Assembly: GCA_038206385.1 (NCBI GenBank)
Contig: JBBRAW010000001.1
Location: 3,143 to 67,142 of the forward strand
Length of the DNA stretch: 64,000 nt
Direction of reading: 5' to 3'
Source of the DNA: Bacteroidia bacterium
Lineage (GTDB): Bacteria > Bacteroidota > Bacteroidia > AKYH767-A > OLB10
Shown here: piece after piece, positions 10,521-38,750 of the stretch
How the letters are laid out: each line of letters opens with the position of its first letter
Position numbering within the stretch: the first letter of the stretch is position 1
Translations under genes and position numbers: made by a program
Notes under the pieces: model-generated
What the model saw: only the letters and a program-made list of their open reading frames with translations
The model's database searches: none
What the model was told of the DNA's origin: nothing

Positions 10521-11201
10521 ATGCTAGGTATTTATTTCATTTCAATTGTGTTTATGTTAATTGGTTGGTTGGTGAGTCGTCAGCTGAAAAATAAATTTGC
10601 GCTCTATTCTCAAACTCAATTAAGCAACAATCTCAGCGGACAAGATATCGCAGAGAGAATGTTAAAGGATAATAATATTACGGATGTAAAAGTTATCTCT
10701 GTTGAAGGTCGCTTATCAGATCATTATAATCCTTTAGATAAAACTGTGAACTTAAGTCATGATGTTTTTTACGGACGCAATGCTGCTGCTGCTGCGGTTG
10801 CTGCACATGAATGCGGACATGCTGTTCAACATGCGCAAGCATACAGTATGTTACAATTACGTTCTGCATTAGTTCCAGTAGTTAGTTTCTCCTCGCAATA
10901 CATGCCTTGGGTTTTATTAGCAGGAATATTTACTATTAATATTTTCCCAACATTATTATTAGCAGGAATTGTTTTATTTTCTGCAACAACAGTATTTAGT
11001 CTTATCACCTTACCTGTTGAATTTGATGCTAGTCGTCGTGGATTAGTATGGTTAGAAAACTCACACACTGTTAGCACACAAGAGCAAACGATGGCTAAAG
11101 ATGCTTTATGGTGGGCCGCAATGACCTATGTTGTTGCAGCACTTTCATCCATTGCAACGTTGATGTATTATGTGATGATATATATGGGGAGAAGGAATTA
11201 A
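10521..11201 (+). CDS. YugP-like membrane zinc metallopeptidase (Zn_peptidase_2 family)
   Basis: 226 aa. N-terminal TM. AAHECGHAVQHA (HExxH). C-terminal TM helices. Size and architecture match B. subtilis YugP-type proteins. Confidence 0.7.
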   Translation: MLGIYFISIVFMLIGWLVSRQLKNKFALYSQTQLSNNLSGQDIAERMLKDNNITDVKVISVEGRLSDHYNPLDKTVNLSHDVFYGRNAAAAAVAAHECGHAVQHAQAYSMLQLRSALVPVVSFSSQYMPWVLLAGIFTINIFPTLLLAGIVLFSATTVFSLITLPVEFDASRRGLVWLENSHTVSTQEQTMAKDALWWAAMTYVVAALSSIATLMYYVMIYMGRRN

Positions 11202-11419
11202 TCCCGATGGCTATCGGGATATGAGTTATGAGTTATGAGTTTCGTCCAGATAGTTATCGGGATTAGAATTAAAAAAAATTAGTTTACCTTGAATCTGGCA
11301 ACTATTCGATTTAATTTATAAATCCATTTCTCCTGCATTATTGATTTTTGGTAAGAAGTACAAAAAGCTTATGAAAATCAAATTTTATTTGAGTCTTTTT
11401 ATTTTAATTTTTTACCAGC

Positions 11420-12697
11420 TCACTTTACAATTAACACTTTTGAAGATGTAGATTTCTTTCCGCAAATTGATTTAACAAAATATAATCCTGAAGGGTAATC
11501 TGAAAGATTTATATGGATTTCATTTTCATTAATATTAAAAAATTGTTTTACGATCTTACCATAACTATCAAATATTTGCAGGCTCCAAACACCTGGAAAT
11601 AAAGCAAACTTTGATACTGTAAACTCTCCGCTTGATGGATTTGGAAATAATTTAATTAAACCAGAAGAATTATTTTCAGAAATCCCAACAGACCCACCGC
11701 CATTGGTGGTTTTTAAGATGGAATGTGTTGATGCTGCATAACCAGTTTGGGAAGATAAAAATTGAAACTTGTAAATTTGGTAATAAGGAAGTGGTGATGT
11801 GTCTATCAATGTATATTGAAGATTAAATGTTATACCATAATCAATTGTTTTCCATATATCTCGATTAACAATTATGTAGCCATTACCATCTGCAAAAAAG
11901 GCAACATCATTAACAGCTCCAAATTGAGGATTGATATAAGATAGCCAATTAATTCCGCCATCTGTTGAATACTTTAGGCCAAACGGTGTGCTATTTATTC
12001 CGAAACCACCAAACCAACAAACAGAATCATTATAACAAGACATCGAATACGCATCAATATTACCACTATTACAGTCTTCGTGAATTTTATTCCAAGTAAC
12101 ACCGCGATTCGCAGTTTTATATAATACTTCATCTATACCAATTGCATAACCAATCGAATCACTTGGAAAATAAAGTTTGTGAATATAATTAAGTTGTGAA
12201 TTACAAGGTTTAGGTAATGTAAATTCATTTACACTCAATCCAGAATTGTAAGTTACATTTAAAGTATAGTTAAAATTGTCGCACCGACCGCTAAAAAAAA
12301 CAGTATCAAAGTTAATTGCATGACATTGTCCTCCCAATAAGCCATTACAATTTGTGGTTGGATTATTACTCGCCCAAGTATTTCCTCCGTCAAATGACTT
12401 TAGGATTTCATTTGGTAGCGAACTTAAGTATCCAGTATCTTTATTCAAAAAATAAATGCCACCATAATTTTTTGCAGTATCCATTGGTATCTTATTCCAA
12501 TTTATACCACCGTCAATAGTCTTCATAAATAAACCTTTATCTCCAGAAACCCAACAAGTATCTTTGTTTAAACAAAAAATATCGGTAATTTGATGAGTAC
12601 TGTCTAAATAAATAGTTGTCCATTGCGCACTTAACTTTGCAGATGCAGTAAAAGCGATACAAACAATTATAATTATAATTCTTTTTAATTGCAACAT
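11420..12697 (-). CDS. Secreted BNR/Ycf48-like beta-propeller protein with T9SS C-terminal sorting domain
   Basis: Signal peptide MLQLKRIIIIIVCIAFTASAKLSAQ. Repeated G..G.i.kT.DGG.tW blades (TIDGGINWNKI, SFDGGNTWAS, STDGGINWLS). C-terminus ...LFPNPSSGEFTV...SGLYFVKSICGKKSTSSKVLIVK is a typical T9SS CTD. Confidence 0.75.
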   Translation of the reverse strand: MLQLKRIIIIIVCIAFTASAKLSAQWTTIYLDSTHQITDIFCLNKDTCWVSGDKGLFMKTIDGGINWNKIPMDTAKNYGGIYFLNKDTGYLSSLPNEILKSFDGGNTWASNNPTTNCNGLLGGQCHAINFDTVFFSGRCDNFNYTLNVTYNSGLSVNEFTLPKPCNSQLNYIHKLYFPSDSIGYAIGIDEVLYKTANRGVTWNKIHEDCNSGNIDAYSMSCYNDSVCWFGGFGINSTPFGLKYSTDGGINWLSYINPQFGAVNDVAFFADGNGYIIVNRDIWKTIDYGITFNLQYTLIDTSPLPYYQIYKFQFLSSQTGYAASTHSILKTTNGGGSVGISENNSSGLIKLFPNPSSGEFTVSKFALFPGVWSLQIFDSYGKIVKQFFNINENEIHINLSDYPSGLYFVKSICGKKSTSSKVLIVK

Positions 12698-12845
12698 ATT
12701 AGCTTTATTGATTCTTATCAGAATATGCGATGTAATATTTATCCTTGATTTTTAAATTTATCTTTACACAATTTTAATTATTGAACAGATACAATGCTTT
12801 TACATTTGTAATTAACTCAGACTTTTTACTTTATTTTTTAATTAA

Positions 12846-14138
12846 TCATTTTATAATTAAAATTTTTGAGGATGTAGATTTCTTTCCGCAAATTGATTTA
12901 ACAAAATATAATCCTGATGAGTAATCTGATAGATTGATATGAATTTCGTTTTCATTCAAATTAAAAAATTGTTTCACCAACTTACCAAAGTTATCAAATA
13001 TTTGTACGCTCCATAAGCCTGGAAACAAAGCAAATTTTGATACTGTAAATTCTCCACTTGATGGATTTGGAAATAATTTAATTAAACCTGAAGAATTATT
13101 TTCAGGAATACCAACAGGACCTCCACCGTTTGTTGTTTTTAAAATAGAATGTGTTGAAGCTGCGTAACCCGTTTGAGAATTTAAAAAGAAAAATTGATTA
13201 ATTCTAATTTGCGAAAATGGAGAAGAATTTAACAAATGATATTGAAAATTGAAAGTTAGCCCATAATCTATTGTTTTAAAAATATCTTCATCAACATTAA
13301 TAATATAGCCTGACCCATCAGAAAAAAAAGCAAGATCTCTTACAAATCCGATTTGACTATTAGTGTTGTAAACAATCCAATTATTTCCGCCATCAATTGA
13401 ATATTGCAAATGTTTTATACTATTATTTTTGCTTCCTCCAAACCATAAAATAGAATCGTTATAACATGACAATCCAAAAACATCCATTCCAAACCCTAAA
13501 CACTCTTCGTGAACTTGGATCCAAGTCAAACCATTGTCAACGGTTTTAAATAATGCCTCATCTGCTCCAGCAGCGTAGCCAATTGAGTCATTAGTAAAAA
13601 GAAAATTTATTAAGTAGTTCCCACTATTGCCACAGGTAATAGGAATGGGAATTTGGTTAAAATTTATTGCACTATCGAAACTAGAGTATATTCCAACATC
13701 AAATGGATAACAACCTGCAATAAAAATAATTGTATCCGTATTATTAGCATGAAGGTTTGTAAACAAAAATGATCCAGAACATGAAGAAATAGTGCTTATA
13801 ACTTTCACCCACGTATTTCCACCATCATTTGTTCGATAAATACTTCCTTGATCATTTAACATGTAGCCATTTAAATAATCAGAAAAATAAATTCTACCAA
13901 AGTTAATAGTTGAATCAATTGTGATAACATTCCAACTGCTTCCTCCATCTAAAGATTTCATGAAAAATCCTTTATCACCTGAGACCCAACATGTATCTGA
14001 ATTTAAACTGAAAATATTATTAATATTATGAGTAGTGTCAGAATACACCTCAGACCATTGAGAAAAAGCTGATTGAATATGAATCAAAAAACTAAATATT
14101 ATAATAAATAGTTTTTTAAAACTAGTTAATCTATACAT
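12846..14138 (-). CDS. Secreted BNR/Ycf48-like beta-propeller protein with T9SS CTD (tandem paralog of 11420..12697)
   Basis: Same architecture (SLDGGSSWNVI, TNDGGNTWVKV, SIDGGNNWIV). The last ~115 aa are ~90% identical to the neighbouring gene. The N-terminal propeller is only moderately similar to the neighbour. Confidence 0.75.
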   Translation of the reverse strand: MYRLTSFKKLFIIIFSFLIHIQSAFSQWSEVYSDTTHNINNIFSLNSDTCWVSGDKGFFMKSLDGGSSWNVITIDSTINFGRIYFSDYLNGYMLNDQGSIYRTNDGGNTWVKVISTISSCSGSFLFTNLHANNTDTIIFIAGCYPFDVGIYSSFDSAINFNQIPIPITCGNSGNYLINFLFTNDSIGYAAGADEALFKTVDNGLTWIQVHEECLGFGMDVFGLSCYNDSILWFGGSKNNSIKHLQYSIDGGNNWIVYNTNSQIGFVRDLAFFSDGSGYIINVDEDIFKTIDYGLTFNFQYHLLNSSPFSQIRINQFFFLNSQTGYAASTHSILKTTNGGGPVGIPENNSSGLIKLFPNPSSGEFTVSKFALFPGLWSVQIFDNFGKLVKQFFNLNENEIHINLSDYSSGLYFVKSICGKKSTSSKILIIK

Positions 14139-16069
14139 ATTAATTTAATTGATTTTTTTTGATAAAGTGACGTTATAATACAAGTATAAACCCCTTGAAC
14201 TAAATTGAGTTCTGATCTATACAAATAATAATTCGTTGTGCCATTTTGAATATTAACATTTTTTAACAAATGCTTAACTAATCTTCCAAATCCATCATAC
14301 AAATCTATAGTAATTATATTGTCTGTATTAGACGTTACACTTATATTAGAAAATTCGTGAAATGGATTTGGGTAAGATATTACATTAAAACTTTCTTTTG
14401 GTTGAACTTGACTATTTAAATAATTTTGACTTCTTCTTTCATTTGCATTAAATGGACCTGGATTTGGTTCAATGTGCGCATGAAATTTTGATCCTGCGAT
14501 AGCTTGAAAACCAGGATTCATTTTTATTGAATTAGATGCATACATGTTTATATAACTTCCTGACTGAATTTGATAACCACATCCCTGATTTGACAACTCA
14601 ATATTTTGACTTGCCTTATCAATTTCATAATAAGAAGTCACTGGGTCACATAATGAAAGATTTTGCGAGACATCCATTATAAATGGTTGACAGAATGCGG
14701 TTTCGCGAGAATTATGTGTCAGAATAGGATCTCTTCCAGTCCAAACAGGAACTACTAATCCATTACAAATTTTTAAATTAATATAATCAGTAGTTACGAA
14801 ATTGTTTGCTGTAAGGGTCTGGAACTGATTATCACTTATTTGTTGTTCCGTCCAAGTCGAACCACCATCAATAGATAAAGAAAGGTAAGTATTTGTATTT
14901 TGTGAAACATCTTGCCCGTAATAAATTATACCCAAATAACCAGTATATGGATCACAAGCCAACCAAGAATCCCAATGCAAAGGAAGTATGGAACTATTCA
15001 CTACAAGTGGAGATGACCAAGAATTACCTCCATCAGAAGATTTAATAAAATAAACATTTGCGTTGCAAGTTGATGATGTATTACAATTGCAATTTGGGTT
15101 TGTTATTGAAGTACATGGATCTCCAACATTTGACCAACAAATATAAATATCACCATTTTGTTGATTTATTGACATTGTTATCCAACTTGCAACTGCAGCT
15201 GAAGAAAGAGTTGATAAAGAACCAATTTTAGGATTATTTCGTATTCCATTAATCTCCAAATTTGGAATATATCCTGATGATATCCATGTTTGTGATAAAT
15301 GAGACCATTTTGCAAACCCTATAAATTTCTCTATGCTGGCGTGAGAGTTTAATCCATCATATATTGACCAACAAGCGTATGCATCTCCATTTGGAGCCAC
15401 CGCAATATTAATTCCATGATTGTATTTTAAGTTTGGACTATTGGGAGGATTAAAAAGAAGTGGATCTGTTAAATCTGTAGGCGGATCCCAATTGATTAGT
15501 TGACTACTAACAACATTTCCTGTCCTTGCAAAAATTTGCGTTATATTAATATCCCATCCTGCAAATAATTCCAAGTGATCTGCAATTGGTCTATCGTCTA
15601 TATCAAGATAATTTTTATCACTTGCATTTGAAAGTATGAATGGATTTGAGTTTGTAACAAAATTATCATCCGAGTAAATTATGTTGTTATCACTAATCGT
15701 TGACAAATAATTAAAATATTTTCTATCATTATGGTCTAGAACAATTGAAGGGTCATAAGTATTTGGAAGGCCAATAAAGTCAGGTGGTGCGGATGTTGCC
15801 TTCCAAGTACTTCCACCATCATCGCTATAAAAAATTGCTTCACCTCTTAAATTATTCACTCCATCATTATAATTTGCATTATTTGCATTGACTATGTGTA
15901 ATGGATTTAACGGATTAATATATATCGAGTTTTCTCCCAAATTTAAAAATTTTGAATTTGGAGTATTCGATGATTCAATCATCACATCAGGTGTATTAAA
16001 ATTTATTGGTATTTGAGCATTGATGTTTAAATAACAAAGTACTCCAATAAATATAATTAGTATTTTCAT
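14126..16069 (-). CDS. Secreted BNR-repeat (sialidase-like) protein with T9SS CTD
   Basis: BNR motifs YSDDGGSTWKA, SSDGGNSWSS, SIDGGSTWTE. C-terminus ...YPNPFHEFSNISVTS...IDLYDGFGRLVKHLL...KKSIKLICID. Probable start at MKILIIFIGVLCYLNINAQ (16069) rather than the track start at 16123. Confidence 0.7.
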   Translation of the reverse strand: MKILIIFIGVLCYLNINAQIPINFNTPDVMIESSNTPNSKFLNLGENSIYINPLNPLHIVNANNANYNDGVNNLRGEAIFYSDDGGSTWKATSAPPDFIGLPNTYDPSIVLDHNDRKYFNYLSTISDNNIIYSDDNFVTNSNPFILSNASDKNYLDIDDRPIADHLELFAGWDINITQIFARTGNVVSSQLINWDPPTDLTDPLLFNPPNSPNLKYNHGINIAVAPNGDAYACWSIYDGLNSHASIEKFIGFAKWSHLSQTWISSGYIPNLEINGIRNNPKIGSLSTLSSAAVASWITMSINQQNGDIYICWSNVGDPCTSITNPNCNCNTSSTCNANVYFIKSSDGGNSWSSPLVVNSSILPLHWDSWLACDPYTGYLGIIYYGQDVSQNTNTYLSLSIDGGSTWTEQQISDNQFQTLTANNFVTTDYINLKICNGLVVPVWTGRDPILTHNSRETAFCQPFIMDVSQNLSLCDPVTSYYEIDKASQNIELSNQGCGYQIQSGSYINMYASNSIKMNPGFQAIAGSKFHAHIEPNPGPFNANERRSQNYLNSQVQPKESFNVISYPNPFHEFSNISVTSNTDNIITIDLYDGFGRLVKHLLKNVNIQNGTTNYYLYRSELNLVQGVYTCIITSLYQKKSIKLICID

Positions 16070-16277
16070 TGTACAAGTTATTTCGAATTTTATATTATTT
16101 TTAATTGCACCGAGTAGTTGCATTCTTCATTATTCTATTTTTTATTTGCAGCAACCTTTTTTACCCTCTTGCAAATTATTTTAAGCGTAGAAATTAGTCG
16201 AAATTTGCTTTCAAATTATTCTAGAAAATCATATTACAACTAGTTCATTTTTCTTTTCTCGAGCAGAATACTTTTTA

Positions 16278-18389
16278 TCATTTTTCACAAATCTTAATTA
16301 TTTTATTTATTTCTGAATTGCATGGTAAATCAGTTTTTACGAAATAAATTCCATCGGGTAAATTTTGTAAACTTAGAGTTGACGATTCCGATGTCAATAA
16401 AGTACTATAAACTTCTCTGCCTAATTGATCAATCAAAATAAGATTCATTTTAGTTGAAGTATTGGTTTCCATTTTCACCGTTACTGATGAAGCGAAAACA
16501 GTTGGGTAGATTATAATCTTACAATCATCTTTATTTTCATTATTTGCAACGATACTATTTGTGTTGGCCATACGTAAACTATTGCGTTGAAATGTACATG
16601 AAGCAATGGTAACTGGTTCAACTCTTACTGCTAAATTAGAATTTGCCTTTGCTGAGAATCCATCTTTTAATGCAATATAATTACTCGCAACTAATTCTAA
16701 CCCTGAGCCGGCATCAGCTATATAATTTCCAGGACCATTGTTTACATCCACATGATTACCGGCTTCAATAATTCCATCTACGTAATAACTGTTCGGCTCA
16801 TTTGCAACTTCTGTTTTGTTCTGAAAAAGTAAAGTTTGGTTTGTTAAAGTATTATCAAATTTCTTTATTAATCTTCCACCATTCCTATCAATTGCGATGC
16901 GGGGCATACCTCGGAAAGCATTTATATTTTCGAATTCTAAGGTACTTCCTGCTCCTAGTAAAAAAGCTGCATCAAAAACCGTAACACAAGGTTCAATAGT
17001 TAATTTACTGCCACTTACTAAACGGTATAATGAAGCGTATTTAGCATCAGCTATAATTGCAGGGTCATGTGGGAAGGATGGATCTTCACATCTCAAATCT
17101 GTAACAACAGGTACATCTCTAGGATCTGTAAAAGGGCCTCCGTTTTCAACAGTATTTGAAAATCCTACTTCATCATTTGGAGCAATTACAGATGGATAAA
17201 CTCCTCTTATAGTTTTAAAAGTATATCCTGATGGGAAATGTAGATCATTAGTGGTTATTGTTGCATCACTAGGATTGAAAATTAATTTATCAATAGGGTT
17301 AATATCTCTTAATTCAAAATCTGTATCAATGAAATAATGTTGTTGATAACCAGATAATGAATTTGTTGTTGCATTAAATGAAGTTTCATATCCAGCTAAC
17401 CCAGTTCCTGTTGAATTTAGTGCTGGTGCTGATAGTAATGAATATGGTGGAGGATAAATAAAATTAAAAGTTGATTGTGTACTTCTAAAGTTATCAATAG
17501 GAGCTGGGAGAGCAGTTCCCATATTAGTGCAATTGCTTGGGTTAGGAATTTCTGAATAAAGGAAATAATTAATTATACCATCAACAAATAATTGATTATT
17601 TAAATTATAATTATACGGGTTAAAATTATTATGATCAGTAATAATTGATGGAAGAAAGCATATATCCCAGGCAGTAGAATAAGCGATGCAATTATTAATA
17701 CAAAAAGGATAATACCTCATTCTTCCACGTGTATTATCGTAACACCATGAAACAGTTGATAAAAGCGTAGTAGGAGATGGAGTCGCGCCAAAACAATACG
17801 CATTAATTGTATGTTTAATTATAGTATGCGGTAGTAATTTTGCATTCGTAGTGCTGATGTACGGATGGTTATTCACAAAAGCGTCTGAAATAAGTGTTTG
17901 TCTATTTGAACCAACATTTGACCAATCTAATGGAAGAAAATCAGGAAGCATATTAGATATTTGTCCCCATTGTCTATTGTTTGGATCATATGGATCCGTT
18001 GGCATGAATAAGTCTCTTTGTGATGGAGGATTTATTGGATTATTAGGACAACCAGAGACAGTTAATGCACAGGGAACAGTAAAAGGAAATGACACTACTT
18101 CCATTTGATAGGTTACACTGATACTATTACCATTGATGAATTGTAGCCAAGGAAATTTATTGTTTAATAGAATTTGATATTCGCCACTATAGGGTGGAGC
18201 ATGAACCGAACCTAGGCTAAATGGATTGTAAGGAATACTCCATGATTGAAAATTTGCATCCCAATAATTCCCAATTGGAATATTAATTCCAGTTATATTC
18301 TGATATGAATTAATTACATCCTGAGCAATGCTGTTCAACGAAGAAAGTAATATTAAATTTAAAAGTGCCAATTTTATTTTCAGTTTCAT
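16278..18389 (-). CDS. Large secreted hypothetical protein (703 aa) with T9SS CTD
   Basis: Signal peptide MKLKIKLALLNLILLSSLNSIAQD. C-terminus IIYPTVFASS...LPDGIYFVKTDLPCNSEINKIIKICEK. Asn/Pro-rich. The downstream gene overlaps its start by 4 bp. Confidence 0.65.
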   Translation of the reverse strand: MKLKIKLALLNLILLSSLNSIAQDVINSYQNITGINIPIGNYWDANFQSWSIPYNPFSLGSVHAPPYSGEYQILLNNKFPWLQFINGNSISVTYQMEVVSFPFTVPCALTVSGCPNNPINPPSQRDLFMPTDPYDPNNRQWGQISNMLPDFLPLDWSNVGSNRQTLISDAFVNNHPYISTTNAKLLPHTIIKHTINAYCFGATPSPTTLLSTVSWCYDNTRGRMRYYPFCINNCIAYSTAWDICFLPSIITDHNNFNPYNYNLNNQLFVDGIINYFLYSEIPNPSNCTNMGTALPAPIDNFRSTQSTFNFIYPPPYSLLSAPALNSTGTGLAGYETSFNATTNSLSGYQQHYFIDTDFELRDINPIDKLIFNPSDATITTNDLHFPSGYTFKTIRGVYPSVIAPNDEVGFSNTVENGGPFTDPRDVPVVTDLRCEDPSFPHDPAIIADAKYASLYRLVSGSKLTIEPCVTVFDAAFLLGAGSTLEFENINAFRGMPRIAIDRNGGRLIKKFDNTLTNQTLLFQNKTEVANEPNSYYVDGIIEAGNHVDVNNGPGNYIADAGSGLELVASNYIALKDGFSAKANSNLAVRVEPVTIASCTFQRNSLRMANTNSIVANNENKDDCKIIIYPTVFASSVTVKMETNTSTKMNLILIDQLGREVYSTLLTSESSTLSLQNLPDGIYFVKTDLPCNSEINKIIKICEK

Positions 18390-20041
18390 AATTTAATGAT
18401 TTTAGAATATGAATTTAGAAAAGGGAAACTTGAAGCTTTTATAAAATAAACACCTGATCGAAGACTAGAAGTATCAATTGTAAAATTTTCTTTATTTAGT
18501 GTGTTTTCATAAACAAGGGCCCCCATTATAGAAAATATTTTAATAAATACGGGTCCATTTATATTAGCATCGGTTCTTAAATATAATTTTTCATTACAAG
18601 GATTTGGATATAAAATTATATCTTTAGAAATATCGTTAGTTGATTTAATTGAAGTTGAAGCTGCACAGATTACGGCTGAATTGAGAATAACATTTGAGTC
18701 ATTTATACCAATAGAAGTTTCCAAAGTGATTGGGCTTATCGTCATCGAAGAATCATCATATGGCACATTAATTACTGTCTCAGTAATTAATGAAGGAACT
18801 ATCTGATCATGACAACCCTTTCCATGTTCATCCGTTGCAGTTATCAATAATTTATTTGTTGGTGTTCCACTATGATAAGTCGATCCTACCCAAATTATTT
18901 TATTATCCTGATACGAACTTGCATTGTAATAGCCGTATTCTGCTGGGACGGTAGGATTTGAATACGTTTTAGACAAGCTTAATATATTTCCAATGCTATC
19001 AAGTTCATAAGTTGTGGAATAGTCAACGCACAATATTGTGTTGCTATTAGTAATATACCTTGAGCCTGATAATTTAGGACCTCCACCTAAATAATGATAC
19101 CTTTTTGTCCAATTAACGTTTAACAAAGTATCCAATTCTACATAGCAATATTTATCTGTTGCTCCAAAAATCGTATCGTTATATACGAATCCACAAAGTA
19201 CTTTATTATTATTCTGACTTATAGATAAATCACTATAATTTGGCCATGAATCCGAAGTGATCACCTTCAAATATTCAATTGAAAGGTCTTGATTCCATTT
19301 AATTAACATTACATCTACCTTATAAGTTAGTGAATCTCTATAACCAAATCCTATCATATAATAATTCACAATATTATTCTCTTCTTTCTTAACGACTTTG
19401 GTAAATATTGTATTTAAATGAGAATTAAGATTATAAGATTTTGCATTAATTAATTGACCATTATTATTATTTAGCTGAACAAGAAGCGATTTATCGGTTG
19501 CGTCAACAAATGCAGTATTATAATTTCCAAATAATAGTAAAGTATCGCCACTTATATCAAGGTAATCCAGTCGTATGTTTGACCCATAAAGTTTAATTTC
19601 CTGTGTCCAAATTGTATCACCGTTTAAGTCGGTTTTAATAATGAAAGTTGTGAGGTCCGGAAAATATGAGGTTGCCAATATTAATAAAGTAGTATCCGAT
19701 ACTTTAACGACTTTACTCGAAAAAATTTCTAAGGAGTCTCTAAAGTAACTTTTCGTCCACAATTCATTTAATAATGAATCAGTCTTTATTAATAGTAGTC
19801 CTCTTTTAGTGGGTGTACAATAAGTTGTGCCTAATACATAATAAGTACTATCAGGATTATACAACACCGAAGTTGCATAAGTGTTACTCAAATTATAATT
19901 TAATTCTTTTTGAAATAGCTGCTGCGCATTTGCACTATTACTTAAAACAAAGAAATTTAAAATAATAAAACAAATGCACCAATTCCGCTTAATAACGGAA
20001 GGATAACTTTTAACAAAACTAGATTTAAAATTATTTTTCAT
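18386..20041 (-). CDS. Secreted hypothetical protein (551 aa) with T9SS CTD
   Basis: N-terminal hydrophobic signal ...CICFIILNFFVLSNSANAQQ. C-terminus ILYPNPCNEKLYL...SGVYFIKASSFPFLNSYSKIIKL. Confidence 0.65.
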   Translation of the reverse strand: MKNNFKSSFVKSYPSVIKRNWCICFIILNFFVLSNSANAQQLFQKELNYNLSNTYATSVLYNPDSTYYVLGTTYCTPTKRGLLLIKTDSLLNELWTKSYFRDSLEIFSSKVVKVSDTTLLILATSYFPDLTTFIIKTDLNGDTIWTQEIKLYGSNIRLDYLDISGDTLLLFGNYNTAFVDATDKSLLVQLNNNNGQLINAKSYNLNSHLNTIFTKVVKKEENNIVNYYMIGFGYRDSLTYKVDVMLIKWNQDLSIEYLKVITSDSWPNYSDLSISQNNNKVLCGFVYNDTIFGATDKYCYVELDTLLNVNWTKRYHYLGGGPKLSGSRYITNSNTILCVDYSTTYELDSIGNILSLSKTYSNPTVPAEYGYYNASSYQDNKIIWVGSTYHSGTPTNKLLITATDEHGKGCHDQIVPSLITETVINVPYDDSSMTISPITLETSIGINDSNVILNSAVICAASTSIKSTNDISKDIILYPNPCNEKLYLRTDANINGPVFIKIFSIMGALVYENTLNKENFTIDTSSLRSGVYFIKASSFPFLNSYSKIIKL

Positions 20042-20062
20042 TAGATTTATTACTTCAATGAA

Positions 20063-21289
20063 TTATTTTTTATTTGCATCTATCTTAGTCTCCAACTCTT
20101 TAACACGAGCTTCAAGTTGTAAAACATACATGTAAAGTTCTTCAATTTTTTCGTAAGAAGCGGGAACTAATTTACCGAGGTTCATTCCTTCCTCGGCAAC
20201 TTCAGAAGCTGTAGGAATTCCGGGTAAGTGCTTATTTTCTTTTAAAAAATTCTTAAGCTCTACAAAGCTTAACATCTTATGCTCCTTATTAAACACATAA
20301 TCTGGCCAACTAGGTGTTCCCAAAGAACAATAGATTTCCTTTGCGCCCAATTTTCCATCTACTAACATTTTATATGGAGTTGATGCAAGAGAGTAGGAAA
20401 GATTTGCATTGCTAAATCCAACTAATACCGTTGTTTCTCCAGTAGTGTTTTTTATAAGACGCATTGCTTCCGATCCATCAACTGAAAATCCCAGAATATG
20501 ATTTGCTGGGTGAAATATACCAGTGGTATTATCTTGATACCAAGTATAGTCCGGATTAGTTCTTATTGAATAGGAATTTACTCCTTTTATCATTGGAGCG
20601 CTCACAAGATTTGGTATAATTTGTAACGATGTAAGGTCAAGAGTAAAAATTGAATTCCCAGCAACATGTAATTTTTCAGTCGGGGAATTTGTTCCTAACC
20701 CAAATCGTCGATTACAACTCCATACATCATTAATATTTGATTGAGCTTGGTACCAAGGCAAAACATTTACGCCTGAACATCTACCTGGTGGGTTAATAAC
20801 AATTAACCCAGTTCTTGAAAAATTACCAAGACTATCAACTATTAATAATGATTCACCAGCTCCAGATAAATGAGAAGCTTTTATATCACCATTACCTTTT
20901 ATTCGAAGTGCTTCAATATAATTTGTTTTAAAAACTAAATCAGACGAATCCTTAGTGCCAATAAACTGCGTTGCAGGATTTGTACTCGCGTTTCCAGTCA
21001 TTGTCCAATCTTCGCGTTCTGGTTGTGTTAAATTGCCATTACCTAATGTACGACAGCCATTGGCATCAATTACTGCTAAAAAATAGTCGCCAGCCGATAG
21101 ATTAGAGATATTCGCTGTAGTTTGATTGTTTTGCCAAACATAAACGAAAGGAGCAACTCCTCCAGCAACAACTGACTGAACACTACCATTCGCACAATTG
21201 TAGCAACTTAAGTTATAATTTCCAAAAAGAGAGGTTGTAAATGCTAAAGTAAGCTTAGCTGGTTGTGATAAGGATATTTGCCCATCTAT
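20063..21289 (-). pseudogene. Continuation of the SprB-repeat gene: fourth SprB repeat plus tail-fibre-like C-terminal domain (track ORF 20063..21001), in frame with 21290..22060 across a single TAG
   Basis: The 288 nt between the TAG (21290-21292) and the downstream ATG (21001) contain no stop in the same frame. They encode a fourth SprB repeat (...NISNLSAGDYFLAVIDANGCRTL...). The downstream part has GLGTNSPTEKLHVAGNS and a C-terminal coiled coil ...EKIEELYMYVLQLEARVKELETKIDANKK, typical of Bacteroidota 'tail fiber domain' proteins (S74-chaperone-like). Confidence 0.6.
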
Positions 21290-22060
21290 CTATGCACCGT
21301 TTTGATCAAAAACACGTACCAAATATATTCCATCTCTTAAACCACTTGGGTTTTGATCGAAACTGCCTTTATTCCATTGAAAAGAATAAGGGGGTATTCC
21401 ACCTGCAACTGTTAAATTAATAACTCCATCATGACCATCAAAACAGGATATATTAAAACCATTATGATTGATAGAAGTAATACTTGAAATATGCAATGCT
21501 GTTGGCTCAATCAAAGTATAGCTTGAAGAGGAGGTACAATTTGTTGCATCCGTAACGGTTATTGAATATGTGCCAACCGATAAATTATCAATTTCTTCTT
21601 TTGTACTTCCTCCACTCCATAAAATATTGTAAGGTGGTGTTCCTCCATGAATCTCTGAACGTATTACTCCATTTGATCCACCATTTTTCGAAATATTGGT
21701 TCCTCCTTCAAAAACGCTTGGGTTAAGGATTACAGTCATTCCATTAGGTTGAAATAATTCAACTGTTTTAAATTTAGTGTGATTGCTAAAATCAGTAACA
21801 GTAACTGAATAAACTCCAGCTTGTACATTATGAATAGAAGAAGTAGTTGCTCCATTACTCCATTGATAATAAAATGGTCCATAATCACCAATAGCAATCG
21901 CTTCAATATCACCATCCGAACCACCATGGCAGCTTACATTGTATCCACCTTCAAAACGCGATAAGTTAAAGGTAACATCAATTTGCGCAGATGCAGTTTG
22001 GGAAATTAAAAAACATAAAGCAAGAGCAAACATTTTCAAATAGGTAAAATTGCTTTTCAT
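21290..22060 (-). CDS. SprB-repeat protein, N-terminal part (signal peptide plus 3 SprB repeats), terminated by an in-frame TAG
   Basis: Signal peptide MKSNFTYLKMFALALCFLISQTASAQ. Three ~85-aa repeats of the pattern GG.PPY...WSNG.TT..I.NL.AG.Y.VTVTD..NC. I recognise this as the SprB repeat of gliding-motility adhesins. Confidence 0.7.
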   Translation of the reverse strand: MKSNFTYLKMFALALCFLISQTASAQIDVTFNLSRFEGGYNVSCHGGSDGDIEAIAIGDYGPFYYQWSNGATTSSIHNVQAGVYSVTVTDFSNHTKFKTVELFQPNGMTVILNPSVFEGGTNISKNGGSNGVIRSEIHGGTPPYNILWSGGSTKEEIDNLSVGTYSITVTDATNCTSSSSYTLIEPTALHISSITSINHNGFNISCFDGHDGVINLTVAGGIPPYSFQWNKGSFDQNPSGLRDGIYLVRVFDQNGA

Positions 22061-22312
22061 AAATATCAGTTTTAGTTAAAGATTCAAATCGAAACTCTCA
22101 AGCATAATAGAACTAATTAAATTGCTGCCACAAAATATTGCAACCTCTCTAAAAAACTAAATAATTTCTACCAGTACTTAACTATTAAAATCTAAATGCA
22201 CTTAGCTTAAGAAAACTCTAAAATATTTAAAGTAATACAATAATTGATAATCAAAGATATAATATAATATTTGAAATAACATAAAAAAATACAACTCCTT
22301 TTAAATTTAACA

Positions 22313-24251: not shown

Positions 24252-25655
24252 TTAATGCAGTGTTTTTAATACTTCATTTGTTAATGCGTTATAGTCATCG
24301 TTGAAATGATGTCCACCAGGAATTACAACAGTCCTACATTGCGTTGGAGTTAATGTAGTTTTTGTCCATGGCTCTTCGTCTTCGCCAAATATTGCAACGA
24401 GCTCTGGTCCCTTCAACTGCTTTAAACTTTTTGCAACATCATAATCATCACTCAACGATCCAATCGAAAGCATATCACTTACGTGGATTTCAAAATCGGC
24501 AGATGTTGATGGTGATAATAATACTAATGATTTGACTTTTTCTTTTAAGTCAGTAGGAAGTTGCTGGTAGAGAAAAGGCATTGCATCTGCACCGAAAGAA
24601 TAACCAGCAAGAATAATATCATCACGATGCCAAAGATTCATGTAATAACGAATTACGGGAACGATATCTTTTGTGGTTTTTGCAGGAGTACTTTCTGTCC
24701 AGAAATATTTTAATGCATCTAAACCGATAACAGGCATTCCTTTCATCGTCATTCCGTTTGCAAATCCTTGATCAAATCCCGTCCATCCACCATCGCCAGA
24801 AATTAAAAATACAAGCGGCATCGACTCCTCCTTTGGGCTAAGATTAAGGATTAACGGTAAATCGTTTCCGGCATCACCTTGTTGCACTTTATGGATGGGA
24901 GCTATTACAATTGGTATTAATAATTTTTCTACTGCTGCATGAAATTGTGGCACCCAATTTTTCTCTATCGAATAACCATGGCCAACATTTTTTAGAATAA
25001 CTTCTTCTGTATTTCCTACTTGCTTTAAAAAGTTTGTCGTTGATGTGAAATCACAAACTTTATCAACAGTTCCTTGTAATGAAATCATGAGGTTAGATAA
25101 TTTTGTTACTGGTTGAAGGTCGTAACCACAACCTTTTTTCCAAGGATGACATTCTAATCCTGAGCCTTTACAAAGTGGTCGATCTAATTCCATATCTGGA
25201 CAAAATCCTAATACTACTCCACCACGAAATGTATTCGCTGGTGATTGCGCTAACAATCCATAAACTAATGTTGCACCAGAGGAGAATCCTACTAATAATG
25301 GTTGATAATATTCATGAAATCCCATCTTCTTTTGAATCAGTTTACTTAGATTTTCAAAATCAGCAGCGGGATATAAACAGGATTGTTTTCTTTGTTGCAA
25401 ATTTTTCATCAACGAACGCATATCAATTCCGATCACTAATGTTTTATCATCACGACATTGTTTTGCCATGTTATCCATTCCTTTATTCCAACCTCCATCA
25501 CCAGAGATAAAAAGTACTAAGCGCTCAGGATTTTTTGGTTTATATAGAACCAATTTTCCAAATGGTTTTACAGATAATGTATCATTTGTCGCATAAACAT
25601 ATTCGAACGATACAATGCTAATCACAAACAATAAGAGAAACTTTAATTGGTTCAT
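24252..25655 (-). CDS. VirJ/AcvB-family secreted alpha/beta-hydrolase protein (putative lysyl-phosphatidylglycerol hydrolase)
   Basis: Signal peptide. Two hydrolase-like halves each with a GDGGW motif (VLFISGDGGWNKG; LVFLISGDGGWTGFD) and GFSSGA / GYSFGA nucleophile-elbow-like motifs. The start overlaps the mprF stop by 4 bp (ATGA). Confidence 0.6.
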   Translation of the reverse strand: MNQLKFLLLFVISIVSFEYVYATNDTLSVKPFGKLVLYKPKNPERLVLFISGDGGWNKGMDNMAKQCRDDKTLVIGIDMRSLMKNLQQRKQSCLYPAADFENLSKLIQKKMGFHEYYQPLLVGFSSGATLVYGLLAQSPANTFRGGVVLGFCPDMELDRPLCKGSGLECHPWKKGCGYDLQPVTKLSNLMISLQGTVDKVCDFTSTTNFLKQVGNTEEVILKNVGHGYSIEKNWVPQFHAAVEKLLIPIVIAPIHKVQQGDAGNDLPLILNLSPKEESMPLVFLISGDGGWTGFDQGFANGMTMKGMPVIGLDALKYFWTESTPAKTTKDIVPVIRYYMNLWHRDDIILAGYSFGADAMPFLYQQLPTDLKEKVKSLVLLSPSTSADFEIHVSDMLSIGSLSDDYDVAKSLKQLKGPELVAIFGEDEEPWTKTTLTPTQCRTVVIPGGHHFNDDYNALTNEVLKTLH

Positions 25656-28240
25656 TCGATTACGGGTTTATATTTCATTACTTCTTTTAATGCTTTCGGC
25701 AATCCTATTAAATCATAATGATGCGAGAAAACAATATACCTACTTATCCAATAACTTGCATATTTATCCTTTGCTTGTCGTCGACCACGATACTCTTTAA
25801 ATTGATTCAAATGTTCGTATGCATAATTAATTCCTTTAGCGGCGGGATGTCGGTACTCATTCAATCCTGCAAGAGGAGCCATGCCGATGTTCAATGTTGT
25901 TGCTCCATTTTCCTTCGCATAATTTATTAAACTGATCATCATAAAATCGGTACAAAATGATGGTGAATTAGGAAGTAAACGTAAGAGATCATAGGTCATT
26001 TCATCTTGCTTGTAATCAGGAACGATATTCATAAACCCACAAGTTTTTCCTTCTGCATTCTTTAAAACAAGGATGACTTGATTACGTAATTCATACTTAT
26101 CGAAAACTCCTTGAGAAAAAGCCATTTCTTCCTCGTTAATATCGGTTAACCATTTATCCGAAATTTGTTGCAATTGTTTCAACGTATCGAATGAATGAAT
26201 AGGCTTAATTATTTTTATAACATATCCATTTCGTATTGCAGCATTGAATGCATTGCGTAAAGATTTATTTGCATTTCCATCAAGAGAAAAAGTAGAGAGA
26301 TTAACTACAGCTTCTTGTCCGATTGGAATTGTTTTTTTATCCAGCGAATAAAAATATTCAAGACTTTCTTTTCCTACGCGATACCAAATAACTTTAAGTC
26401 CTTTCTTGAGAGAAAATTTTTCAAATGCACTAATTAATGATTTCTTTTCAGCGATATTTTCTGCAACAGGTTCTTCCAATGCAATTGCATAGCCTCTCGT
26501 TAATCGGTAAGAAACAAATCCATTACGTTTATCGTTAAAGAAAAATTGTTTGTCGGGATACGTTTTAAAATAATCCAATACCGATTTACCATACTGCTGA
26601 ACCAATTTATCAGCTTGTAAAAAATCGGCATCTTCCGGTTCATATTCATAAAGGTAAGGACGTGCAAGACTTACTAAGAGATACGTCATCGTAAGAATTC
26701 CAGAAAGGCGAATACTCCAGAGAAATGCTTTACCAATACCTGTATGCGCTTGTAAAACATCTACGTTAAGCAAGAAAAAAGATTCTAATGTATGAATCAT
26801 CGATTGCCATAAAGTAAAGTCGATGCCGAAATGATGTTTATCTAAAAAGTAAAAGCCAGCTACCGAAAAAATCATTACCGTAAGTATCGATAAAATTGCT
26901 GAACGAATTCCATCCCATGTTGAAGTTTTTTCACTTCGAATAATGTAATTGGAGCGTGTAACAAAAAGAATCATAATTGTAAATGCTGCAAGACTTGCTT
27001 CTTCGTAGTCGATGGCTTTGGTGAGATGTCCTATTAATGATAAAGAAGAAACAACCAACGCGGCGACCCAAGCAATACGTAATCCACGCAAGAGAAATAT
27101 TGCAGTGAGCATTAGAAATATTCCTGATGCTAGAACAAAATAATTAGAATAATGAATTGCATCAAGAGGGAGAAACTGTCGAAGTAAAACCAAGCGTGAA
27201 TGTATTGCTGGTGTTAATGCAGAAATTGTATTTACAATTCCAAGCATGAATAAAAGGATTGCTGGTAATATTCTTAATAAGATATTATTCTTATTCCAGA
27301 AGAACGAAAACACACCGAATACTAGTGGAAGCCAAAATTCTAGAAATCGAAATAGAACTGTTGCACCTACGGCTTCTGGCATATTTGCTCCTGCATGTTG
27401 TAGGTAGGTGATTACTGAAAATTCTATTGCTCCTAGTCCTCGTAAAAATGGCGAAACAACTAATAATACAACAGCAATTGTATAACCAACGAAAGCAGCT
27501 TCCCATCCTAATGTAAGATTTAAAGCTTTAAATGCGATCCAGAAATGAATGATTCCTACAAGGTCAATAGCAATTGCATACAATAATGCGATAAACATTT
27601 TTTGTGATGTATATATTTTAACATTCATTTCAGCATAGGCAGGAACATGTTTTATAAACCAATCACGAATTTTTCCATTACGATTTATAGCTTTCAAAAA
27701 AAATAATATCAACGCTGATAGCACTAATAATCCAATGAATGAAAAAAGTAGTGATGAATCTATTGAAGAATTGAACCATAAATACAATGCGATAGGAATT
27801 GCAACAATTGCAACAGCGAGAATTCCTAGAATTGCATAAATGAATGAGCCGAAACGTATTTCCGCTGATTTAATTTCTTTCCCTGCCACATCTTCAAAAA
27901 AGCCTAATGATGTTATTCCACCAGCTGGTAAGAAAACGCTAATTAAATTTCTGCTTAGAAAAAGTTTAGTACAATTTATTAAAGAGACTTTAGCTCCTGC
28001 AACGATAAAACTTTGTTTGTATAATAATGCTTGAAATAAAATAGTGATTGCTGTTAATACAATTCCATAAAAAAGCCACAAATAATTTACTTGATTTAAT
28101 ACAGCTTCGGTTTTAAATAATTCATTACGTTCTTGATAAAAAAAATAAAGTCCTGAAGCGAGTAAAAATAGTCCTATTAACTCCTTCCATGGCAAGCGGA
28201 ATCTTGTTAGTAATCGTTTACGGGATATTGCTACTTGCAT
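25652..28240 (-). CDS. mprF: MprF-like bifunctional lysyl-phosphatidylglycerol flippase/synthetase
   Basis: 862 aa. About 14 predicted TM helices in the N-terminal 520 aa. C-terminal soluble ~330-aa domain (aminoacyl-PG synthase, DUF2156-like). Translationally coupled to the VirJ gene. Confidence 0.7.
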   Translation of the reverse strand: MQVAISRKRLLTRFRLPWKELIGLFLLASGLYFFYQERNELFKTEAVLNQVNYLWLFYGIVLTAITILFQALLYKQSFIVAGAKVSLINCTKLFLSRNLISVFLPAGGITSLGFFEDVAGKEIKSAEIRFGSFIYAILGILAVAIVAIPIALYLWFNSSIDSSLLFSFIGLLVLSALILFFLKAINRNGKIRDWFIKHVPAYAEMNVKIYTSQKMFIALLYAIAIDLVGIIHFWIAFKALNLTLGWEAAFVGYTIAVVLLVVSPFLRGLGAIEFSVITYLQHAGANMPEAVGATVLFRFLEFWLPLVFGVFSFFWNKNNILLRILPAILLFMLGIVNTISALTPAIHSRLVLLRQFLPLDAIHYSNYFVLASGIFLMLTAIFLLRGLRIAWVAALVVSSLSLIGHLTKAIDYEEASLAAFTIMILFVTRSNYIIRSEKTSTWDGIRSAILSILTVMIFSVAGFYFLDKHHFGIDFTLWQSMIHTLESFFLLNVDVLQAHTGIGKAFLWSIRLSGILTMTYLLVSLARPYLYEYEPEDADFLQADKLVQQYGKSVLDYFKTYPDKQFFFNDKRNGFVSYRLTRGYAIALEEPVAENIAEKKSLISAFEKFSLKKGLKVIWYRVGKESLEYFYSLDKKTIPIGQEAVVNLSTFSLDGNANKSLRNAFNAAIRNGYVIKIIKPIHSFDTLKQLQQISDKWLTDINEEEMAFSQGVFDKYELRNQVILVLKNAEGKTCGFMNIVPDYKQDEMTYDLLRLLPNSPSFCTDFMMISLINYAKENGATTLNIGMAPLAGLNEYRHPAAKGINYAYEHLNQFKEYRGRRQAKDKYASYWISRYIVFSHHYDLIGLPKALKEVMKYKPVIE

Positions 28241-31384: not shown

Positions 31385-34300
31385 TTAGTAAGGAGATTCT
31401 TCTCTGTTATTGCAATGTTGTAATTCATGAATTTTCATACTTGGTTTATCAACTGGAGCACCATACTCCTTTGCGCTTATCATTGCTTTAATAATCCGTT
31501 GACGTTCATTTTCATTTTGCAAACGCTTTTGTTGATCATTATTAAAATCATAATAGCAAACGCCATCAACAAATGTTTTCATCGAATGCGCATACACTGA
31601 TAATGGATTATCATTCCATAATACAACATCTGCATCTTTACCAACAGCAATACTTCCAACACGTTTATCAATATGTAAAAGTTTTGCAGGATTTAAAGTA
31701 ACAAACTTCATTGCGTCTTCTTCACTCACGCCACCATACTTCACAGCCTTCGCAGCTTCTTGATTTAATCTTCGTGCCATCTCTGCATCATCCGAATTAA
31801 AAGCTGTAACAATTCCCATTTTATTTAGGATCGCACCGTTGTAAGGAATGGCTTCCATCACCTCGTATTTATATGCCCACCAATCGCTAAATGTTGAGCC
31901 ACCTGCACCATGCGCTTTCATCTTATCAGCAACTTTATAACCTTCTAAAATATGCGTGAACGTATTTACTTTGAAACCAAAAGTATCAGCAACATGCATC
32001 AACATATTTATTTCGCCTTGCTGATAACTATGACATGTAATAAATCTTTTCTTATTCAAGATTTCCGCAAGTGCTTCCATCTGTAAATTTCTACGCGGAG
32101 TTTCTGCTTGCGATTTATCTTTTGTGGCTATTGATTTCTGCATGCTTTGATCGTATTCTCGGGCACGAGTAAATGCATCAATATAAGTTTGCTCTACACC
32201 CATTCGCGTTTGCGGATAACGCACTGAATAATTATCCCCCCAATTTGATTGCTTCACATTTTCTCCTAAAGCAAATTTTATGAATGGATCTGCTCCTTCA
32301 AATTTCATTGCTTCAGCAGATTTTCCCCAACGCAATTTTATTAATGCCGTTTGTCCACCAATAGGATTCGCACTTCCATGCAACAAATGCGAAGTAGTAA
32401 CTCCTCCTGCTAACTGCCGATAAATATTTACATCTTCCGGATCGATCACATCACCAATACGCACTTCAGAAGTAATAGCAGCGGTTCCTTCATTCACGTC
32501 GCCAGCAATTGCAATATGCGAATGCTCATCAACAATTCCTGCAGTCAAATGCATTCCTGTTCCATCAATAATTTCTACGCCAGCAACCTTCGAAGCATCA
32601 ATATTTTTTCCAATCTGTTGAATCTTTCCATTACTAATTAACACATCTGTATTTATTAAGATGCCTTCTTTTTCATTCGTCCAAACAGTACTATTTTTTA
32701 TGAGAACTGATTTTGCTTGTGGTAATTCAATATTTCCAAATGCCATATCAGGATACCAAACTTTTCCAATTACAGGAATGGTATCTTTTTTAACAGAATC
32801 TTTTTTTGTCTCAGTAAAAACTGTTGCATAAATTGCTTTCCATTGAATCCATTTTCCATCGGGTGCTTGACCATCACCAGCAATTGTAAATTTATCATTG
32901 GCATCAAGCACTCCATTCAATCTGTAATTTCCTGCACCTTTTTTTACTTCAAAACGTAAAGTAAATTGTTGTCCATCGCGATCATAATTCACTTTTACTT
33001 TTGTACTGTCGTGCATCAATTGCCATTCAGGTGTTACTGCTTCGCCAGAAATATTTAAATCCCACCCTTTCAATGAATCTAAAGAAAGCTTATATCTTCC
33101 TCGAACATCAGTAGAATCGTATTCCTTATCAGCATAACGCTTACCTAAAATCCATTGTTCAAGAATAATATTTTCTTTATCGAATACATCTTTGCTGCTG
33201 ATGAAAAAACACGCAAGCATTCCTGGTTTTAAACTACCAACACGATCATTAATTTTTAAGATCGATGCAGGAGTTTGTGTTAACGCTGTTAATGCAGCTT
33301 CTTTACTCAATCCATACAAAATTGCTTTCTGAATATTTTTTAGAAAATCTTTTTTGTCTTTTAATCCGTAAGTTGTAAATGCAAATTTTATTCCTGCTTT
33401 CTCTAATACACTTCCGTTTGATGGTGCTTCTTCCCATTGTTTTAATTCAGCCAAACTAATATCGATTGCATCATAAGGATTACTTACGTCAAGAGCTTTT
33501 GGATAATTTACAGGAATAATAAATGTATTACCTGTCTTTTTTATTTCATCAACACGTTTGTATTCATCACCTGATCCTTTGATCACATAATTTACATTAA
33601 ATTCTTTTGCAATTTTATCTGCGCGCAAACCACTCCAAACATCATTCACATCAAAAATTTGTGTGAGTGATTGATCTGAAATCCATGACTCAAGTGAAAT
33701 ATCGAAATTTTTATTTTTTGATTGCTGATACCATTTCGCATCGCAATAAGTTTGACGTAATAATGCAATCGAACCCATTAATGAAGCAGGATAATCTTGC
33801 GTTGATGTTCCTTTGCTAAATGAATAAGTCGCGGCAGCTTTATCCTTTACGATGAGCTCATTTTCTTTTCCTTCGCCTAATGCAACAACTGTAGCTGTGC
33901 CGCGTGCGATTCCATCATCCTGCAAAGAAAGTGTTAGTCCAAAGCCTTGCTTACGAAGTTCTGCTGCCTTTTTTGTATCAGCATTAAAATTACGGCTCGC
34001 ATCAAATTCAGGTTTCAACGCTTGATTCCAACTAAAAGCACCATTCGTTCTAGTATCATATTGCGGCGCTCTATTTCCCGGTCGTTCTTTCCTTACCTCC
34101 GGCATACCATAAGTAGTAAACGCATCAATAAAAGAAGGATAAATCATTTTGCCTTTGAGGTCGTAAACAACGGCTCCTTTGGGGATGATTAAGTTGGTTC
34201 CGATGCTAATAATCTTATCATTTTTAATGACGAGACTTGCATTTTTTAGCAATGTTTTAGGATCTTGCCAGATATCGGCATGGGTGAAAACATAGTAGAT

Positions 34301-34402: not shown

Positions 34403-34504
34403 ACGTGGGTCAAGTGATGCGACGAAGGTAATAGTTTTAGGTCGTAGGGCATTGGCTTCCGGCAACACAATTTAACATCCTTTAAAAAGCCAATTTCTCC
34501 TCTA

Positions 34505-38007: not shown

Positions 38008-38750
38008 TAGAGATTACTAATTTACATCTCACTTTTAATAAAGGAGAAACCAACGAAATAAATGTTCTTCGAGGTATTAATCTTGAAATAAAAGCGCAAG
38101 AATTTGTAGTACTTGTGGGTGCTAATGGTTCTGGGAAATCATCTTTACTCAATGCACTTGCAGGAACAGTGAGTCCCGATAAAGGAAATATTAAACTTGA
38201 AGGAAAAGATATTACTCATTTAAAAGAATACGAAAGAAGCAAATTTCTAAGTCGTATTTTTCAAAATCCTTTACAAGGTACTGCACCCGATTTAAGTATT
38301 CTTGATAATTTTCGATTGGCATCTTTACGCACAAAATCAAAGCAACTCAACATCGGAACTGATCAAAATTTTAAGGATTTAGTTCGTGAGAAAATTCGCA
38401 CATTAAATTTAGGTCTGGAGGATAAGTGGCAACAACCTATGGGAACACTTTCAGGAGGTCAGCGACAAGCATTAACCTTATTGATGGCAACGATGGACGA
38501 TTGTAAAATCATGCTCTTAGATGAACCCACAGCAGCTTTAGATCCAAAGTCGTCAGCAATCGTAATGGAAAAAGCAAATGAAATTATTTCTACGAATCAA
38601 CTCACCGCACTGCTTATCACACATCAACTAAAAGATGCAATAAAATATGGCAATAGAATTTTAATGATGGAAGAAGGTGTGATCAGTAAAGATATTCGCA
38701 ATGAAGGAAAAGTAGCTTTGAAAATGGAAGAATTGTTTGGGTGGTTTTAG
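38004..38750 (+). CDS. ABC transporter ATP-binding protein
   Basis: Walker A GANGSGKSSLLNAL, signature LSGGQRQAL, Walker B IMLLDEPTAALD. Start taken at MIEITNLHLTF (38004) rather than the longer track ORF that overlaps the permease. Confidence 0.8.
   Translation: MIEITNLHLTFNKGETNEINVLRGINLEIKAQEFVVLVGANGSGKSSLLNALAGTVSPDKGNIKLEGKDITHLKEYERSKFLSRIFQNPLQGTAPDLSILDNFRLASLRTKSKQLNIGTDQNFKDLVREKIRTLNLGLEDKWQQPMGTLSGGQRQALTLLMATMDDCKIMLLDEPTAALDPKSSAIVMEKANEIISTNQLTALLITHQLKDAIKYGNRILMMEEGVISKDIRNEGKVALKMEELFGWF

Follow-up and report, generated by a model that had tools for sequence, protein, structure and literature searches.

SprB, the gliding-motility adhesin of Flavobacterium johnsoniae, contains SprB repeats (PF13573), is about 6,500 aa long, carries a type-B T9SS C-terminal domain (CTD) and has the partner genes sprC, sprD and sprF. 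A Bacteroidota surface filament built from strings of Ig-like domains is the grappling-hook protein GhpA of Aureispira (PDB 9flw, 9fls, 9flp, 9fly), with more than 5,000 aa. Among fibres of extended, beta-rich design, the MAT (mosaic adhesive trimer) fibres of Bdellovibrio keep their N-terminal, cell-proximal domain invariant and vary at the C-terminal tips (PMC10769870), and a group of phage fibres carries an intramolecular chaperone domain, Peptidase_S74.

The gene described here is located on the minus strand of a 64-kb stretch of Bacteroidota DNA, referred to below as the window, and is interrupted by a single in-frame TAG. Read across that codon, it encodes a 665-aa protein in which four SprB repeats precede a beta-rich shaft and a helical C-terminal module. 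The repeats, with their tandem Ig-like beta-sandwich fold, are what it shares with F. johnsoniae SprB; it differs in length, in the number of repeats, in the lack of PF13585 and in its unrelated C-terminus. Because it has neither the size nor the type-B CTD of SprB, the window protein is not an SprB orthologue. No T9SS CTD of either kind was detected in it, since PF13585 gave no match at E<=1 and no PF18962 C-terminal domain was present. A Por_Secre_tail match was considered as a possible CTD and rejected, as it is an internal stretch of 25 residues (310-334) belonging to SprB repeat 4, with a score of 26.6 bits where the threshold is 27.

Structural searches returned GhpA as the best match of the four N-terminal domains (Foldseek E 1.3e-10 to 1.7e-8); sequence identity is 15-19%, and the match is confined to the repeat part, extending neither to the shaft nor to the C-terminal module. 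The top Foldseek matches of the shaft were the Bdellovibrio MAT fibres (Bd2133, PDB 8ond; Bd3182, PDB 8onc), HylP and T4 gp34, with E values of 0.01-2, none of them significant, and the resemblance to the MAT fibres is weak (E 0.011, TM 0.17). The general design of an extended beta-rich fibre is shared with both MAT and phage fibres, but the pattern of conservation is reversed, the N-terminus being variable and the C-terminus conserved in the family of the window protein (PMC10769870). The S74 chaperone of phage fibres was not found. The C-terminal module was also considered as a divergent form of this chaperone, and this was rejected given the absence of PF13884 and an hhalign probability of 1.4% against an S74-containing protein. 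The closest likeness is to a family of SprB repeat-containing proteins with a fibre-type C-terminus, which have the same end-to-end layout, three or four SprB repeats, the junction motif EREDWTMTGN and the C-terminal module WPDYVF...HLPGIPS...KIEELTLY; all of these homologues are uninterrupted, whereas the window copy has the TAG.

Translation of 22060..20063 gives 666 codons, in which the sole internal stop is codon 257 (21292..21290). Two ORFs, 21290..22060 (256 aa, ending at the TAG) and 20063..21001 (312 aa), lie on the minus strand in a shared frame, and from the TAG to the ATG at 21001, a distance of 96 codons, there is no in-frame ATG, GTG or TTG. The first-pass annotation, made from the letters of the sequence, had described these ORFs as sharing one frame, separated by an open 288-nt spacer encoding a fourth SprB repeat, with TAG 21290-21292 as the lone interruption. 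The translation agrees with that description, and the spacer both matches PF13573 and aligns with repeat 4 of intact homologues. The one correction concerns the stop as a break between repeats: it falls within repeat 3, 10 residues short of the end of the repeat. At the base composition of the window (34% G+C), the chance of 408 open codons following a stop is about 5e-14. All six frames of the 64 kb were also scanned for pairs of open stretches of at least 120 codons in the same frame with one stop between them; this identified one within-gene case, the TAG at 21292..21290, and two other sites that represent ordinary neighbouring gene pairs. The case at 49940 is a cytochrome c gene adjoining HflX. 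An alternative genetic code was considered as well and discarded, since 8 of the 44 other window ORFs tallied terminate in TAG, which points to the standard code. The features of the gene and its two downstream neighbours are listed in Table 1.

Table 1. Features of the interrupted fibre gene and of the two genes downstream of it (window coordinates; residues numbered along the joined protein)
Feature	Coordinates	Strand	Basis or remark
Whole interrupted gene	20063..22060	-	665 codons plus terminal TAA, with one internal TAG; full-length uninterrupted homologues
Predicted Sec signal peptide, residues 1-25, MKSNFTYLKMFALALCFLISQTASA then Q	21986..22060	-	Read by eye from sequence
SprB repeat/Ig-like domain 1, residues 26-105	21746..21985	-	PF13573; beta-sandwich with pLDDT>90 in the P0001 model
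SprB repeat/Ig-like domain 2, residues 106-186	21503..21745	-	PF13573; P0001 model
SprB repeat/Ig-like domain 3, residues 187-267, holding the stop	21260..21502	-	PF13573; P0001 model
Internal TAG, codon 257	21290..21292	-	GAG (Glu239) in orthologue P0001, where the last beta-strand in domain 3 begins
SprB repeat/Ig-like domain 4, residues 268-347, after the TAG	21020..21259	-	PF13573; alignment; P0001 model
Beta-rich fibre/shaft-like region, residues 348-559, beginning EREDWTMTGN (Met at 21001)	20384..21019	-	Alignment; PHROG; Foldseek; model
Conserved C-terminal module, residues 560-665, WPDYVF...HLPGIP...KIEEL and long terminal helix	20066..20383	-	Alignments; pLDDT>90; family size
Downstream gene 1, 551-aa T9SS type-A CTD cargo	18386..20041	-	Pfam Por_Secre_tail; synteny in L001, L002 and L006
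Downstream gene 2, 703-aa T9SS type-A CTD cargo	16278..18389	-	Pfam Por_Secre_tail; synteny

The signal peptide and the four SprB repeats proposed in the first-pass annotation are both supported. The N-terminus, judged by eye, is signal-peptide-like, and the N-termini of homologues are similarly hydrophobic, ending in ..AQ or ..SQ. In the joined protein Pfam finds four SprB stretches, scoring 90.6 bits for PF13573 (cut-off 28 bits; E 4.8e-26). The AlphaFold2 model of the closest relative, P0001, has a mean pLDDT of 81 and shows four beta-sandwich domains with pLDDT>90 across residues 10-330, followed by a beta-rich shaft modelled with lower confidence than the repeat domains. The C-terminal module comprises the last 106 residues, including a terminal helix of about 35 residues, and is the most conserved part of the protein (pLDDT>90); it has no match in Pfam-A, NCBIfam or the PDB sequences and no significant fold match. 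The protein does have a beta-rich, fibre-like region and a long C-terminal helix; the resemblance behind the label tail-fibre-like, applied to this end of the protein by the first-pass annotation, is weak, with PHROG tail-fibre families at an E value of about 1e-3 and non-significant Foldseek matches to trimeric fibres. Taken together, the protein appears to be exported by Sec and to be fibre-like, with a putative location on the cell surface, and it is probably trimeric. The C-terminal module may be the oligomerisation or anchoring end, with the Ig-like repeats displayed outward.

Comparison with relatives demonstrates that 22060..20063 is a single interrupted gene. In protein searches with the joined sequence, the closest relative, P0001, is an uninterrupted protein of 646 aa with 72% identity across 96% of the length. 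Its locus (L001) belongs to the Bacteroidetes MAG GCA_025352785.1, and L002 is the same sequence obtained from reads. In the DNA alignment around the stop, the window reads GCA TAG ATA GAT and P0001 reads GCT GAG GTA GAT; since P0001 has GAG at this position, a single G-to-T change, GAG to TAG, explains the stop. Seven further full-length homologues of 564-683 aa (P0006, P0031, P0042, P0049, P0068, P0074, P0080) share the whole layout, and the residues at the stop column in the eight aligned full-length homologues are E, E, E, T, Q, A, G and R, all encoded by sense codons. An intact 584-aa copy with four repeats is also present on a 3-Mb contig of another MAG, assembled from long reads (L004). 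The orthologue comparison by which the first-pass annotation had proposed to check its reading of one gene broken by one TAG therefore comes out in favour of that reading, with a sense codon at the stop position in 9 of the 9 intact relatives examined.

An opposite reading is that there are two genuine genes, one for a 256-aa SprB-repeat protein and one for an independently translated 312-aa fibre protein. Gene callers did list the two halves as separate proteins, and the family does include stand-alone fibre proteins without SprB repeats. However, the true stand-alone members P0146, P0154, P0137 and P0132 each begin with a signal peptide, which the 312-aa ORF lacks. The ATG at 21001, with which that ORF would start, is the Met of a conserved internal motif, (E/D)DW(T/S)M.GN, in the homologue alignment, and the 96 codons leading to it from the TAG form a complete conserved SprB domain in which a start codon is absent. 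When the region was scanned for promoters and terminators, sites were no more numerous than in shuffled sequence. P0122, a 316-aa protein that at first seems to be the sole example of a stand-alone downstream gene, was rejected as a precedent, because its start lies 47 nt from the end of a contig, which truncates it. The first-pass annotation had held that relatives ending at the same TAG, with an independently conserved start for the downstream ORF, would indicate two genes. No relative ends there, and the downstream ATG is the conserved internal Met, which argues for a single interrupted gene and makes a pair of genuine genes extremely improbable. The second ORF, of 312 aa, is an artefact of gene calling with a false start at an internal Met.

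The position of the stop within the fold bears on what could be made from the gene. Its equivalent in P0001 is Glu239, with which the final strand of domain 3 (residues 239-246) opens in the pLDDT>90 model. Through the stop, 61% of the protein is lost, and with it the most conserved module. Because the stop lies inside domain 3, the short product would consist of two intact domains and one domain minus its last strand, and would not be a tidy isoform.

The region past the stop gives an indication of the age of the lesion. Relative to P0001, amino-acid identity is 62% for residues 27-256 before the stop (dN/dS 0.15), 53% for residues 258-345, corresponding to repeat 4 (dN/dS 0.29), and 84% for residues 346-665, comprising the shaft and C-terminal module (dN/dS 0.11). 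No second lesion was found in the 408 codons after the stop. As the post-stop region is unrelaxed and has no second lesion, the stop is either very recent or not real, and the undecayed state of this region fits a sequence error or efficient suppression as well as it fits a very recent mutation. Exact-protein look-ups, one scan of the genome collection and one of metagenomes found no same-species copy and no sequence with an identity above 72%, and both halves of the gene occur once in a collection of 15 billion proteins, on a single NCBI contig of 122,769 bp.

Of the three explanations put forward in the first-pass annotation, nonsense mutation is the most likely and sequencing error less so, and programmed read-through found no support in any test run. 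If the TAG is a sequencing or assembly artefact, the organism has GAG, and the T at 21292 reflects a faulty consensus or the calling of a minor allele in a metagenome-assembled genome (MAG). In keeping with this, the lesion is a lone single-base substitution followed by 408 intact and highly conserved codons, the stop lies within a short tandem, TAGATAGAT, and the two halves are known once, from an unannotated NCBI contig, a pattern typical of a MAG. On the other hand, the stop-pair scan and an overlapping-ORF check revealed no other split or frameshifted gene in the 64 kb, so that the consensus looks accurate. The overlapping ORF pairs at 31385-34773, 37141-38750, 39935-40850 and 45120-47185, considered as signs of an assembly full of pseudogenes or indels, proved to be earliest-start extensions and contain no frameshifts. 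Moreover, real nonsense alleles in variable, fast-evolving surface-protein genes are far commoner than stop-creating substitution errors in any given gene. An artefact is accordingly judged unlikely, while retaining an appreciable share of the probability, and we infer that the TAG is genuine rather than a base-call error. Under programmed or suppressor-mediated amber read-through, two products would arise from the gene, a short one confined to the repeats and a long one that includes the fibre. The intact and conserved downstream frame would suit such an arrangement, as would the low-level near-cognate read-through of UAG that, to our knowledge, occurs in all bacteria. Against it, the TAG is not conserved, all 9 intact relatives having a sense codon, and TAG is an ordinary terminator of other ORFs in the window (8 of the 44 tallied). 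The window contains no tRNA gene and no Rfam match, and no stimulatory RNA element was found downstream of the TAG, the 131 nt from just before it folding worse than shuffled controls (z = +1.64). The stop inside a beta-sandwich would leave the short form minus one strand, and recoding of the pyrrolysine or Gln type would be expected at an ancestral Lys or Gln, whereas the residue replaced here was Glu. Read-through as a programmed mechanism is therefore very improbable, and it is just as doubtful that the TAG is partly decoded through a suppressor tRNA elsewhere in the genome, infection by a TAG-recoded phage or exceptionally leaky termination. Were partial decoding to take place, a minor amount of full-length fibre would accompany a truncated secreted fragment, amounting to a tunable or conditional surface adhesin.

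The TAG is thus probably a real and recent nonsense pseudogene allele of an ordinary surface-fibre gene. The lesion has the form of a nonsense pseudogene in that the stop is one substitution away from the orthologous sense codon and truncates conserved domains. According to this explanation, codon 257, formerly GAG for Glu, would have become TAG by a single G-to-T change, and translation would end in domain 3, so that the shaft and C-terminal module would not be made. The predicted product would retain the signal peptide, two intact domains and a third lacking its last strand; it is most likely non-functional, which would mean loss of function of the gene. For annotation purposes, 20063..22060 should be treated as one pseudogene and not as two genes.

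The intact form of the gene belongs to a very large family. A phmmer search of 1.84 billion representative proteins with the shaft and module (residues 346-665) produced 36,805 matches at E<=1e-3, of which 22,239 were at E<=1e-10. The first-pass annotation regarded the protein as an unusual mini-SprB architecture, a view that does not hold: metagenomes contain many intact proteins of 560-690 aa in which a signal peptide and a small number of SprB repeats are followed by a beta-rich shaft and the C-terminal helical module, and the architecture is ordinary for this Bacteroidota family. Across its members the C-terminus is constant and the N-terminal part varies, consisting of SprB repeats, of other domains or of nothing. 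The database names found on one family member, 'TMF family protein' and 'BZIP transcription factor', look like coiled-coil artefacts. Literature searches on SprB repeats combined with tail fibres, on read-through in Bacteroidetes and on 'TMF family protein' returned nothing relevant.

In the window, the fibre gene is followed after 21 nt by the 551-aa gene, which in turn overlaps the 703-aa gene by 4 nt. At the P0001 locus the fibre gene is likewise followed by two Por_Secre_tail genes, of 545 aa and 705 aa, the counterparts of the 551-aa and 703-aa genes. On the evidence of these gene orders and Pfam matches, the fibre gene heads a conserved three-gene cassette whose other two members are predicted T9SS cargo. 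The three genes look like an operon, and the genes downstream might also be expressed less as a result of the premature stop. The fibre gene repeatedly precedes T9SS cargo genes, yet its own protein is without a T9SS signal.

The cassette forms part of a block of about 11 kb (11,201-22,312) that contains six minus-strand genes for surface proteins, five of them T9SS type-A cargo. Another ORF of the same length as the fibre gene, 14126..16123 (665 aa), was examined as a possible paralogue and proved to be an unrelated, BNR-like T9SS cargo protein. The block differs between relatives. Two loci, L007 and L008, have flanks of 86-90% nucleotide identity to the window, with other genes after proC, and the fibre gene is absent at the locus; in the closest MAG the cassette is on another contig. 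In L008, just a 30-codon remnant of the C-terminal module of the fibre family is present, beside a truncated BNR-like ORF. Because of these differences in the surface-protein block, and of the remnant in L008, gain, loss and decay of such genes are taken as normal at this locus, and such turnover fits the reading of the window gene as a pseudogene.

By itself, the interrupted gene is unremarkable, a copy of a common surface-protein gene that has been inactivated or mis-called. The wider point lies in its family, whose C-terminal module is abundant while having no known match, and whose linkage to T9SS cargo genes is recurrent.

The six surface-protein genes that lie on the minus strand between proC and gene 10521..11201 make up a variable island. 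In two relatives without the fibre gene at this locus (L007 and L008), the flanks share 86-90% nucleotide identity with the window, yet the gene content after proC differs; both also keep the MprF-like and VirJ-family gene pair beside proC. In the closest MAG (L001), the cassette comprising the SprB-repeat fibre gene and its two downstream cargo genes is located on a separate contig, behind an acetyl-CoA synthetase gene. L008 carries a short remnant matching the profile of the fibre-family C-terminal module (E 7e-9), immediately preceded by a truncated 100-aa BNR-like ORF, and this segment looks like the deletion scar of a fibre-family member.

Features of the island, its surroundings and the related locus L008
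Feature	Location	Strand	Remark
Surface-protein island, six genes	window 11201-22312	-	between proC and gene 10521..11201
BNR/YCF48-like T9SS cargo paralogues, adjacent	window 11420-12697 and 12846-14138	-	
Lysyl-phosphatidylglycerol synthase (MprF-like, 862 aa), then VirJ-family protein (467 aa)	window 24252-28240	-	
RES-domain toxin and Xre/MbcA/ParS-type antitoxin, gene pair	window 39935-40850	-	
Fibre-family C-terminal module remnant, 30 codons (MKLQMKKIEELTLYIVELQNQINEIKSNQK)	L008 7953-8045		profile match

Within the island, the adjacent BNR/YCF48-like paralogues have an overall identity of 59%, while their final ~105 residues, consisting of the linker and the sorting domain, are almost identical, which points to a probable gene conversion or recent partial duplication.

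The region of the fibre protein ending in the conserved WPDYVF...HLPGIPS...KIEELTLY helical module (window 20066-20383) had 22,239 matches among representative proteins at E<=1e-10, and the module found no counterpart in the 2025 Pfam-A copy, NCBIfam, or PDB sequences or folds. One member of the family is named 'TMF family protein' and 'BZIP transcription factor' in databases; these names look like putative coiled-coil artefacts. The single internal TAG of the fibre gene lies within a short tandem, TAGATAGAT (window 21284-21292), where the uninterrupted orthologue P0001 has GAGGTAGAT. The stop might have arisen by a substitution that was templated or of the slippage type, or the sequence context may favour consensus errors.

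The fibre gene product has no T9SS sorting domain. Two genes with Por_Secre_tail domains, encoding T9SS type-A cargo, are nevertheless found downstream of the fibre gene in all four distinct loci examined (window 16278-22060; L001, with L002 being the same sequence obtained from reads; L004, with an intact 584-aa homologue; and L006), and the arrangement holds even in a locus that is only 45% identical. The recurrence of these two genes behind a fibre gene without a sorting domain suggests that the fibre protein and the T9SS type-A cargo may be functionally linked.
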